Part shown: positions 43,204 through 45,468 of the stretch, in pieces
Layout: every line of letters starts with the position of its first letter
Numbering within the stretch: position 1 is the first letter of the stretch
NCBI GenBank assembly: GCA_026713825.1
Contig: JAPONS010000051.1
Span: 17,885-81,884, forward strand
Direction: 5' to 3'
Source of the DNA: Chloroflexota bacterium
GTDB taxonomy: Bacteria > Chloroflexota > Dehalococcoidia > Lucifugimonadales > UBA1127
DNA: 64,000 nucleotides
Program-made: the position numbers and the translations under genes
The notes under the pieces: model-generated
What the model was told of the DNA's origin: nothing
Databases searched by the model: none
The model's input: only the letters and a program-made list of their open reading frames with translations

Positions 43204-43911
43204 TTGCAGAACAGGTGGTTTGGCGAGAAGAATGACTACTTCAAATACAGTGTAATACGGCATCTACTTGCGTATGGTAGTTTACGTGTGGCAGTCAACT
43301 GGATGTTGATGCCGGACGCTGGCAATCTAGACCTGAGTAAGACCAGCTATCTCAGAAACCCCAAACATCACTTCAGGAGCTTCGACCCGTACGTCTTTGA
43401 CTACCTACAGGAACAAGTAGTGCAGCGTAAGCAGTTCAATGTCTCGGTGATGGCATTGGGAGGCCCAATTGCGAATTGCCAGTTCTTTGATGACTATGTG
43501 CCTCAAGACCAAGGAGAAAGGCAGAGATGGTTCAACAAGTTTCTTTCTAGTGCTAATGGGATTCCTGTGATGTTTTTTGACCCTGACACTGGAATTGAGC
43601 GGGATTCATCAAAGGGTAAAGACAGGGTGAAATTCATATGCTGGGATGAACTGCGATACGCGTATGGGCTAAACCACACTCTTCTAATCTATCAGCATAG
43701 AGATCAAGGGCTGTCTCCCCGCTGTTCAGCCCTGAGCCGTCTTAGTGAGATTCAGGAAGTATTCCCCGACACTAACGTATGGGTGATATATTCTAGTACA
43801 GTTGCTTTCTTCTTGTTAGGGCAGCCACCGCACTTCAAGCAAATAGAAAAGGCTGTCGTCTCCCTTAAACAATACTGGCGAGCTTACCCTGTGTCAGTCC
43901 TTTGGCCATAA
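43204..43911 (+). CDS. Uncharacterised protein (~235 aa) in an AT-richer island; motif order reminiscent of RlmJ-like Rossmann proteins
   Basis: The AT-richer reading frame begins right at the nudC stop. The candidate start is TTG 43204, behind GGAGAGGTG. Motifs: GEKNDYFKYSVIRHLL near the N-terminus, VMFFDPDTGIE mid-protein, and KFICWDEL...TLLIYQH. The upstream part of track ORF 42703..43911 is an out-of-frame overlap with nudC. Confidence 0.55.
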   Translation: MQNRWFGEKNDYFKYSVIRHLLAYGSLRVAVNWMLMPDAGNLDLSKTSYLRNPKHHFRSFDPYVFDYLQEQVVQRKQFNVSVMALGGPIANCQFFDDYVPQDQGERQRWFNKFLSSANGIPVMFFDPDTGIERDSSKGKDRVKFICWDELRYAYGLNHTLLIYQHRDQGLSPRCSALSRLSEIQEVFPDTNVWVIYSSTVAFFLLGQPPHFKQIEKAVVSLKQYWRAYPVSVLWP

Positions 43912-43920
43912 ACCTTTGCG

Positions 43921-45468
43921 CTACAGCAACGCACCGTACTCCCGCACTGCCTCCGCAAAGGCCTTGTCTAGCCAAGACTCTAGACTTGGAACGATTTCTT
44001 CCAGAAGGGACTTGTATGTAAATACGAACTGCCCCAGGGAACAAGGCTTGAGGATGTCAGGAGGCACATCGCTGGACACTTCATACGGCTGCTCAGACGG
44101 CGCTCGCACTTCGGCCTCAGCAGCATAGAAGGCACGGGCCTCCATAATGCCTCCATGCCAAGGGCCAGTATGGTGCAGCGACACCACAAAGGCAAATGTT
44201 CTGCGTATTGTCTCGCGTTCTTCAACCATCATCTTGGCCACATAATAATGCGGTTCGTTGAAATCTACTTCGCGGCCTTGAGCATTCGCTGCTCGTGTGA
44301 CGAGGTTCTGGTAGAGATTTGGGTCCCTACTTCCAACTACACCTCGCTCCTGAATATCGGTGCCAACGACATCGTGCCTAAACGATGCAGACCCAGAACC
44401 GTGTTCCCTCCTAATGATGCCACTGAGGCTGTTGAGTAGCGAGTTGAGGGCATGCTCAGTACGTATGGCCAGTCGTATTGCCAAGTGGTTCACCGTACCC
44501 CATTCCACAATGGCGTCCCGCTCCCGGCGTTTGAACCGTGCTTCGATTCTGGCCAACTCGGTTCCCGTAGCTGAGGCGGAAGGTTGTTCAAGGGGGCCAG
44601 TCTGCAAGTTCAAACCCTCAATAATCGCTGTTTCTTCCAACCGAACAAGAAATCTAACGAGCGGCACCAAATCGCCCGCGTCTGCGGCTTCCAGCGCGTC
44701 GATATACTCCGTACGGTCGTCACGATCCACGACTATGGGCAAGAGGCCAGCCCTGAGCAGTGATAGGCCCATGAGCGCCCGTGCCACTCGCCCGTTGCCG
44801 TCTTGGTACGGGTGTATCTGCACAAATCGGTGGTGAAGCCATGCGGCCACCACAATGGGGTCCTTGTCCTGATACTCCGCCAGCAAGGACAGCAGCCGCT
44901 CCATCTCCGGCGCAACTTGAAGCGGGGGGCAATACTCGTGCACTGCGCCGGACCGGAGCGTGACGGAGTTGGGGTGAACCTTGAACGCGCCGCGCAGCAG
45001 CCGCGTTTCATACATGCGGCCCTCTCGGTCGTATGCTGTGACGGCCGGCTGATGCGCTGTGTAGGCTTGATGCAACTCATGGATAAGGCCAATGGTGAGT
45101 TCGCGCGCACCGCCCACGCACTGCTGCACGAGTGTCCATGCGGATTCATGGTCGGACAACACTGTGGCCAAGTGGGCAGGGTCGACGTTGGTGCTTTCGC
45201 GAGGGATAAGGTCCTCGCGAAAGCCGTGCTCCACCAGGACATTCGTCGTGCCACGGTCCACATCGTACAACCGCTCAATGATGCCGGTTTCCACGCTCAG
45301 CCGCCGGACCAAGCGCTCATTGAACTGTTGCAGCCCGTAAGGGGCCTCTTCTTGTAGCCGGGCCTGCGCTTCTCGCCACACTTCTGTGAGGGGTTGCAGC
45401 CCATGGGCAATGCGCTCCTCAAATTCAGTCAATGGCTCAATTGGCTGCCAGCGATGCTGGATGGTCAT
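43921..45468 (-). CDS. Fic/DOC-family protein (AMPylase-type motif) with ~230-aa uncharacterised C-terminal domain
   Basis: Canonical Fic motif HPYQDGNGRVARAL, encoded at about 44789-44814. I set the start at ATG 45468, 18 nt after the polA stop. The C-terminal third has no motif I recognise. Confidence 0.8.
   Translation of the reverse strand: MTIQHRWQPIEPLTEFEERIAHGLQPLTEVWREAQARLQEEAPYGLQQFNERLVRRLSVETGIIERLYDVDRGTTNVLVEHGFREDLIPRESTNVDPAHLATVLSDHESAWTLVQQCVGGARELTIGLIHELHQAYTAHQPAVTAYDREGRMYETRLLRGAFKVHPNSVTLRSGAVHEYCPPLQVAPEMERLLSLLAEYQDKDPIVVAAWLHHRFVQIHPYQDGNGRVARALMGLSLLRAGLLPIVVDRDDRTEYIDALEAADAGDLVPLVRFLVRLEETAIIEGLNLQTGPLEQPSASATGTELARIEARFKRRERDAIVEWGTVNHLAIRLAIRTEHALNSLLNSLSGIIRREHGSGSASFRHDVVGTDIQERGVVGSRDPNLYQNLVTRAANAQGREVDFNEPHYYVAKMMVEERETIRRTFAFVVSLHHTGPWHGGIMEARAFYAAEAEVRAPSEQPYEVSSDVPPDILKPCSLGQFVFTYKSLLEEIVPSLESWLDKAFAEAVREYGALL

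Follow-up and report, generated by a model that had tools for sequence, protein, structure and literature searches.

A predicted RlmJ-like protein of an unnamed family and a class II-type Fic protein encoded tail to tail between nudC and polA in a Chloroflexota bacterium

Gene layout and base composition between nudC and polA

We examined two neighbouring genes in a 64,000-nucleotide stretch of a Chloroflexota bacterium genome (assembly GCA_026713825.1, contig JAPONS010000051.1; hereafter the window). Gene 1 (43921–45468, minus strand) encodes a 515-residue Fic protein, and gene 2 (43204–43911, plus strand) encodes a 235-residue protein with a predicted RlmJ-like class-I methyltransferase (Rossmann) fold. 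Both lie between nudC and polA in a stretch of low GC content, and an original prediction, made from the nucleotide letters, read them as one horizontally acquired toxin or defence module. The comparisons reported here do not support a cognate module, and point to two independent genes.

The left flank is nudC (42254–43201, plus strand), an NADH pyrophosphatase of the Nudix type with Pfam NUDIX, NUDIX-like and Zn_ribbon_NUD domains and 92% amino acid identity to the nudC product of the related locus L005. Gene 2 begins with a TTG codon 2 nt after the nudC stop, and the orthologues use ATG or GTG at the same starting residue. A Shine-Dalgarno-like GGAGAGG, read from the sequence at the end of nudC (43190–43196, plus strand) and lying 7 nt ahead of the TTG, suggests that the nudC transcript also serves for the translation of gene 2. 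The two genes converge, as originally noted, with a 9-nt spacer between their stop codons (43912–43920), in which there is no terminator-like hairpin. On the right, the ATG of the Fic gene follows the stop of polA (DNA polymerase I; 45486–48302, minus strand; 86% identical to the L005 polA, itself with Pfam DNA_pol_A domains) after a gap of 17 nt; in L005 the Fic start overlaps the polA stop by one base. This short gap makes co-transcription of polA and the Fic gene likely, as had been proposed.

A windowed GC profile showed that the low-GC stretch is real. In 400-nt windows, GC content falls from 0.695 (42800–43199) to 0.465 (43200–43599), so that the break coincides with the nudC stop codon (TAG, 43199–43201), where the original prediction had placed it by eye. 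The recovery had been placed at the polA stop; it is complete in polA (0.63–0.66), but the rise is stepwise through the Fic gene, with 0.53 at 43800–44399 and 0.58–0.61 at 44400–45400. The GC content at third codon positions (GC3) is 0.88 in nudC, 0.525 in gene 2 (overall GC 0.47), 0.56 in Fic residues 317–515, 0.69 in Fic residues 1–316 and 0.88 in polA. Among the ∼52 open reading frames (ORFs) of the window, equally low GC is found elsewhere only in a gene for an abortive-infection phage resistance (AIPR) protein and in two ORFs at the right end. None of the direct or inverted repeats, att-like sites, promoters or terminators sought at the edges of the low-GC block exceeded what shuffled sequence would give, and no Rfam family was found anywhere in the window.

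The Fic gene and its pairing with gene 2

The core of the Fic protein (residues 1–316; 44521–45468, minus strand) is a class II-type Fic/AMPylase domain that matches Pfam Fic (PF02661) at 61.1 bits against a cutoff of 24 and is 73% identical to the L005 Fic. The active-site motif HPYQDGNGRVAR (residues 219–230; 44779–44814, minus strand) is a canonical HxFx(D/E)GNGRxxR, in agreement with the first reading of the gene, and sequence relatives in the Protein Data Bank (PDB) are FICD, the Bacteroides structure 3cuc and CdFic (E-values from 1e-18 to 1e-14). Within SVETGIIER, the motif TGIIER (residues 61–66; 45271–45288, minus strand) fits (S/T)xxxE and ends in R rather than G/N. Because the inhibitory Glu65 is kept, the motif is identical in L005, and two homologues (L038 and L039) have TGQIEG, we assign the protein to the class II Fic proteins, in which the inhibitory motif stands N-terminal to the core in the same chain. 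Class II Fic proteins, with their intramolecular inhibitory glutamate, are self-restrained AMP-transferases, and judged by its motifs gene 1 would encode such an autoinhibited enzyme. The inhibitory helix had been reported only in this degenerate form; it is present as described, but a perfect (S/T)xxxE(G/N) match, TAIIEG, had been overlooked C-terminal to the Fic motif (residues 280–285; 44614–44631, minus strand). This second match has a class III-like position, is absent from L005, L038 and L039, and is probably incidental.

The NCBIfam SoFic equivalog scores 32 bits, below its cutoff of 550, and the PADLOC matches to SoFic and PDC-S04 are confined to the Fic core (SoFic profile positions 111–259 of 361). 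By these profile scores, the protein is neither a SoFic equivalog nor the SoFic single-gene defence system.

The C-terminal extension (∼residues 317–515 plus stop; 43921–44520, minus strand) is an orphan. It is missing from the 313-residue L005 orthologue, against which it appears as a ∼600-nt gap in the nucleotide alignment, and no relatives were found in a 5.8-billion protein set, in JGI metagenome contigs or in PHROGs. About 230 residues after the Fic motif had been described as lacking any recognisable motif; the orphan tail exists, but only the last ∼200 residues are without relatives. A single-sequence AlphaFold model of the full Fic protein was unusable, with a predicted local distance difference test score (pLDDT) of 35. 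Two candidate relatives of the tail were rejected: the 187-residue gene that replaces Fic in L001 and L007, which has no similarity by BLASTP, and the tails of the L038 and L039 Fic proteins. The latter proteins are 468–480 residues long with cores 47–48% identical to the window Fic, and their tails, of similar length, match the window tail without significance (hhalign E 0.05 over 30 residues; shuffle z-scores from −1.5 to 2.5 in local and global tests). A variable C-terminal domain may be a trait of this Fic subfamily. The proposal that the Fic gene was horizontally acquired found no support: its core is orthologous in the syntenic L005, where it has a native GC3 of 0.876, and on this comparison Fic is a resident chromosomal gene.

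Gene 2 follows nudC after 3–8 nt in six related loci (L001, L002, L003, L004, L005 and L007), of which only L005 carries Fic. L005 alone shares the order nudC, gene 2, Fic and polA with the window, and there too Fic and gene 2 are convergent; in L001, L002, L003 and L007, which are related genome versions, gene 2 is followed by a conserved 187-residue gene and ApbA in place of Fic and polA, and L004 is too short to show genes beyond gene 2. Conversely, the Fic subfamily of the window occurs without any gene 2 family member in L038 and L039. We clustered neighbouring genes from six-frame ORFs, initially at 24 loci and then at 37 (∼29 lineages), and found no recurrent neighbour family beside gene 2 homologues at the 37 loci other than gene 2 itself. 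A Fic motif lies near family members in two lineages only, namely the window with L005, and L029 with L030. In the latter, the Fic is of another type (Fic_N + Fic) and stands 0.6–4.6 kb from the family gene, with inserts between.

These results bear directly on the proposal of a single cognate module made up of Fic and gene 2, a toxin with its modulator or a two-gene anti-phage system, acquired together. The adjacent, convergent arrangement in both the window and L005 would fit it, as would the low-GC, highly divergent block that continues over gene 2 and the Fic tail, the second lineage with a nearby Fic, and the domain-level matches to PADLOC SoFic and PDC-S04. Gene 2 is, however, without Fic in the four relatives and at ∼30 other loci, the Fic subfamily occurs alone, and the L005 Fic is native in composition and tail-less. 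The two genes also lie in different transcription units, one behind nudC and the other behind polA. Since Fic has its own inhibitory helix, it would need no antitoxin, and gene 2 contains no [ST]xxxE[GNR] inhibitory motif. We consider a cognate module quite unlikely.

Gene 2: family, predicted fold and divergence

Gene 2 has no match in Pfam, NCBIfam, PADLOC (PADLOC-DB v2) or PHROGs, even at E ≤ 1. A profile search of 1.84 billion cluster representatives (clusters at 50% identity) nevertheless returned 4241 clusters at E ≤ 1e-3 and 684 at E ≤ 1e-30, mostly of 230–250 residues; a word-indexed search found 8 relatives only. Members come from Chloroflexota, Acidobacteriota, Armatimonadota, Proteobacteria, Bacillota and the archaeon Methanoregula, and wherever the source gives a name it is 'hypothetical protein'. 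We found no literature on the family when searching for RlmJ-like proteins in defence contexts. The long members have mutually unrelated C-terminal extensions, including one TPR and one weak HEPN domain and one fusion to glycerophosphodiester phosphodiesterase (GDPD); the latter is a 520-residue protein of Candidatus Spongiihabitans (L019, 7998–9560).

Residues D11, K14, R19, W33, L68, R106, D126, D128 and G130 are invariant in an alignment of 46 diverse members. Two elements thus mark the family, D-x-x-K close to the N terminus and D-P-D-x-G behind a hydrophobic strand. In the window, the three motifs originally picked out are all present. The N-terminal motif GEKNDYFKYSVIRHLL (43222–43269, plus strand) holds D11, K14 and R19; D126-P-D-T-G (43579–43593, plus strand), within FFDPDTGIE, represents the invariant D-P-D-x-G; and LLIYQH forms a further strand (43681–43698, plus strand), in which Q164 is nearly invariant across the 46 sequences and H165 is invariant only in a narrower alignment of 9.

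An AlphaFold model built from 9 sequences has a pLDDT of 87.9 and a predicted template modelling (TM) score of 0.89. The top Foldseek match in the PDB is Escherichia coli RlmJ (6qe5_A; E 1.9e-4, probability 1.0, TM-scores 0.45 and 0.41, r.m.s.d. 7.6 Å), followed by RlmCD and Dam, and matches in the viral library are exclusively methyltransferase-fold proteins. When RlmJ was added to the family alignment with MAFFT, its ADVLKH fell on NDYFKY and its LILIDPPY on VMFFDPDT, so that D-P-D-T-G occupies the position of the catalytic DPPY; LLIYQH stands at the RlmJ ALWYPV strand by secondary-structure order. The suspected resemblance to RlmJ thereby gains structural support, with D-x-x-K and D-P in the same order. 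The replacement of DPPY is confirmed, the 46 members sharing D-P-D-x-G with no aromatic residue. The Gly-rich loop after strand 1 is also absent from the alignment, with WMLTPDDG in its place. Given the lack of detectable sequence homology (the RlmJ family, PF04378, has no Pfam match to gene 2 at E ≤ 1), the absence of DPPY and the replaced loop, we do not file gene 2 as a member of the RlmJ family. The model is consistent with an RlmJ-like architecture with a rebuilt active site.

In RlmJ, the N-terminal tail, Lys18 and Asp164 reportedly line the active site. Their equivalents K14 and D126 are invariant in the gene 2 family, so the pocket probably still takes a nucleotide or flipped base; with the aromatic residue and the Gly-rich loop lost and D128 and conserved Arg residues gained, the chemistry is probably not N6-adenine methylation. 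One might still read gene 2 as a canonical S-adenosylmethionine (SAM)-dependent methyltransferase that makes m6A in DNA or rRNA as an orphan enzyme and has simply diverged in its motifs, given that its top structural matches are RlmJ, RlmCD and Dam and that the motif IV Asp-Pro and the N-terminal Lys are invariant. Dam-type and other orphan methyltransferases are, moreover, often solitary and horizontally mobile. That reading has to accommodate D-P-D-(N/T)-G in all 46 diverse members, the missing loop, and the lack of any methyltransferase match in Pfam or NCBIfam even at E ≤ 1, and we judge it unlikely.

Gene 2 differs from its surroundings in divergence as well as composition. In every clade member its GC content is 0.47–0.54, while that of its neighbours is 0.68–0.71. 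Between the window and L005, the nudC and polA products share 92% and 86% of their amino acid residues, the Fic cores 73% and the gene 2 proteins 38%, and nucleotide identity drops from 94–95% in late nudC to ∼50% from 43200, before returning to 71–87% in the Fic core. Synonymous divergence (dS) in this pair is 0.44–0.60 in the flanks and 1.1 in the Fic core, with gene 2 saturated at synonymous sites (proportion of synonymous differences 0.80). Between L001 and L007, dS is 0.14 in the flanks and 0.67 in gene 2, where the ratio of nonsynonymous to synonymous divergence (dN/dS) is 0.31. The trees conflict, with ((L001,L005),window) for gene 2 and ((window,L005),L001) for nudC. A second Chloroflexota pair, L008 and L009, has flanks 87–95% identical and gene 2 73% identical, with a 3.6-kb indel alongside. 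Raised dS, an incongruent tree and purifying selection together indicate an exchange of old alleles at a conserved site; judged by these rates and trees, the alleles of gene 2 predate the genome around them and have been swapped between lineages at a fixed position. Such exchange accounts for the low GC and excess divergence of gene 2 and the Fic tail, to which the foreign signal mainly belongs, and the composition would reflect neither the recent insertion of a two-gene island nor decay. In the window the replaced tract spans gene 2 and the Fic tail, and it may reach, in weaker form, into the Fic core.

Two further readings of gene 2 can be weighed on these data. A decaying passenger under relaxed constraint, whose divergence and composition carry no functional meaning, would explain divergence far above that of the flanks and the atypical composition, but the ORF is intact and of equal length in all relatives, the dN/dS of 0.31 and the nine residues invariant over 46 distant members point to constraint, and the raised dS would not be produced by faster protein decay alone; this is very improbable. 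Alternatively, nudC and gene 2 could make up an operon whose products work together, with substrates such as NAD-capped RNA or nucleotides derived from NAD. A gap of 2–8 nt separates nudC from gene 2 at each of the seven clade loci, the window among them; this spacing, the ribosome-binding site within nudC and a fold that suggests a nucleotide or RNA ligand are in keeping with such a partnership. We regard it as improbable, as the family loci outside this narrow clade have no Nudix neighbour, and the clade identities (82–92% for nudC, 38–45% for gene 2) and incongruent trees would be unexpected for co-adapted partners.

Some further features of these loci were recorded alongside. The 3′ half of nudC in the window (42625–43150) is 94–95% identical in nucleotide sequence to L005, and its 5′ half and polA are 80–90% identical; a recent recombination event may have covered the 3′ half and stopped at the variable block. 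The family gene of L009 is followed immediately by a 3.6-kb insertion (8759–12319; a periplasmic binding protein and two ORFs), the locus being otherwise collinear with L008. The family gene of L029 and L030 has a native GC3 (0.81–0.84) and is as divergent as its flanks (71% against 65–75% identity), and in L030 only, a RadC and MmeI-type restriction-modification block separates it from Fic.

Several features of the family are suggestive of mobility or conflict. Its phyletic spread reaches the archaeon Methanoregula, and across genomes the GC content of the family gene is below that of both flanks at 15 of 19 loci. Family members lie in integrase and Prim-Pol islands with HsdM or MmeI (L027 and L037), and have as neighbours AbiEii (L029), RadC with MmeI-type restriction-modification (L030), REase-ARP with bDLD1 (L031), GmrSD (L034), PemK with DUF559 (L036), AAA_23, AbiJ and IS110 (L006), and GIY-YIG nucleases (L043). 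Hallmarks of defence or mobile elements occur in 8 of ∼12 Pfam-annotated contigs, as a raw count with no background control. Small nucleases adjoin the family gene at four loci (DUF559 in L036, REase-ARP in L031, two GIY-YIG in L043 and Uma2 in L018), and an SOS-response-associated peptidase (SRAP) gene stands one to two genes away on two unrelated replicons (L034, 5363–6130; L043, 4026–4685); SRAP and the nucleases may hint at a DNA-directed activity. The family is found at 2 loci in IMG/VR and in 3 of 72,556 plasmids, and this near absence from plasmids and viral sequences speaks against a counter-defence gene of phages. That gene 2 acts in conflict or defence is put forward as a hypothesis with moderate support at best. 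In a gammaproteobacterial metagenome-assembled genome (L022), two 1457-bp IS1595-type copies (4615–6071 and 8621–10077; 99.2% identical) bracket a 2.5-kb segment with the family gene, a layout resembling a composite transposon.

Interpretation and comparison with known systems

We consider it somewhat more probable than otherwise (roughly 0.6) that two unrelated genes converge tail to tail between nudC and polA, at a site prone to recombination. Gene 1 would be a class II Fic, read from the polA transcript, autoinhibited by its motifs and carrying an orphan C-terminal domain of ∼200 residues. Gene 2, read from the nudC transcript, would be a solitary member of a large, unannotated, phylum-hopping family and would need no fixed partner. 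It would keep the architecture of RlmJ, with D-x-x-K in an N-terminal helix, a helical insert and, behind strand 4, an Asp-Pro turn, and would bind either a nucleotide or a base flipped out of RNA or DNA, for a chemistry other than canonical N6-adenine methylation. That gene 2 encodes a nucleotide- or nucleic-acid-directed enzyme acting alone is our tentative proposal, held at a little under even odds, and retention of SAM-dependent methylation within it seems unlikely. The role of gene 2 may lie in conflict or defence, or it may be a selfish passenger. A more speculative version, which we think doubtful, makes it a widespread single-gene conflict or immunity family with an RlmJ-type scaffold and acidic D-P-D-x-G chemistry on nucleic acids, whose ancient, exchangeable alleles sit behind nudC and may have been co-exchanged with the Fic C-terminal domain.

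Several observations weigh against this account. The most divergent block runs unbroken across gene 2 and the Fic tail, and a joint cassette is possible. A Fic gene near the family gene in a second lineage among ∼30 loci leaves room for some non-random link; two of ∼30 lineages exceed the naive expectation, possibly through a loose association such as shared variable regions. On the side of function, the RlmJ link is structural and comes from a predicted model with TM-scores of 0.41–0.45, an hhalign comparison of E. coli RlmJ with the 46-sequence profile gave a probability of 0.4% and no match, and hidden Markov model searches of PDB sequences with the gene 2 family gave chance matches only. 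The loss of SAM binding is likewise an alignment-based reading. At 19 species-representative loci, the 148 neighbouring ORFs are mostly housekeeping genes, and PADLOC matches at E ≤ 1e-10 apparently come from only one or two of them.

The family of gene 2 is both common and unannotated: its members form over 4000 clusters from bacteria and archaea, and none of the libraries searched gives it a name. If active, it would be a methyltransferase-fold protein whose catalytic motif has been swapped for a different chemistry. Its pattern in this clade (a fixed site, foreign composition, old alleles and purifying selection) is that of immunity or conflict loci, which makes the family a reasonable candidate for experimental screening.

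Elsewhere in the window, the AIPR gene (559–2358, minus strand; 599 residues) is another solitary low-GC gene of defence type, with GC 0.49 and GC3 0.49 beside neighbours of GC3 ∼0.9. Two adjacent low-GC ORFs at 63030–63485 and 63525–63992 (minus strand; GC3 0.47 and 0.57) have no Pfam match and may form a third patch of foreign origin at the edge of the window. Upstream of nudC, three tandem paralogous Rieske/LigXa-type oxygenase genes (38107–42152, plus strand) encode proteins of 456, 418 and 432 residues, and L005 has the same array with its third copy truncated. An intergenic repeat of ∼50 nt, 89–96% identical between copies, occurs in L008 (1670–1722, 4354–4405, 5525–5570, 10959–11011 and 14661–14708) and L009 (6690–6741) and resembles a REP-type repeat of these Chloroflexota genomes.

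In the Fic/Doc pairs (VbhT-VbhA, FicT-FicA and Doc-Phd), a Fic-fold enzyme likewise stands beside a small-to-medium second gene. There, however, the SxxxEG helix is supplied by a short antitoxin encoded upstream in the same direction, whereas gene 2 encodes 235 residues, is convergent, has a predicted methyltransferase-like fold without SxxxEG, and faces a Fic that is self-inhibitory by its motifs. The pair would accordingly fall outside the Fic/Doc type II toxin-antitoxin systems, and we advise against annotating the Fic gene as one half of a new toxin or defence system of two genes. Its closer likeness is to the class II Fic proteins (FICD/HYPE, SoFic, Clostridioides difficile Fic and Bacteroides BT_2513, 3cuc), with which it shares HxFx(D/E)GNGRxxR and an N-terminal helix with the inhibitory Glu. 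It differs from them in the Arg that ends its inhibitory motif in place of Gly/Asn, in the orphan C-terminal domain, in having no helix-turn-helix or Fic_N domain, and in its low score against the SoFic equivalog.

Dam-type and other N6-adenine DNA methyltransferases match gene 2 by their Rossmann fold in the PDB and viral libraries, but with TM-scores of only 0.27–0.34, and gene 2 is without (D/N)PP(Y/F/W), SAM motif I and a target-recognition domain. The best structural match to the model is RlmJ (E. coli YhiR), the 23S rRNA m6A2030 methyltransferase of PF04378. The order of elements is shared, from an N-terminal tail through the D-x-x-K helix, strand 1 and a helical insert to a strand ending in Asp-Pro. 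Gene 2 has D-P-D-x-G for DPPY and WMLTPDDG for the DTHAGAG loop, and is ∼45 residues shorter, with probably one strand-helix unit fewer. RlmJ is a conserved housekeeping enzyme, whereas gene 2 is solitary, mobile and variable.

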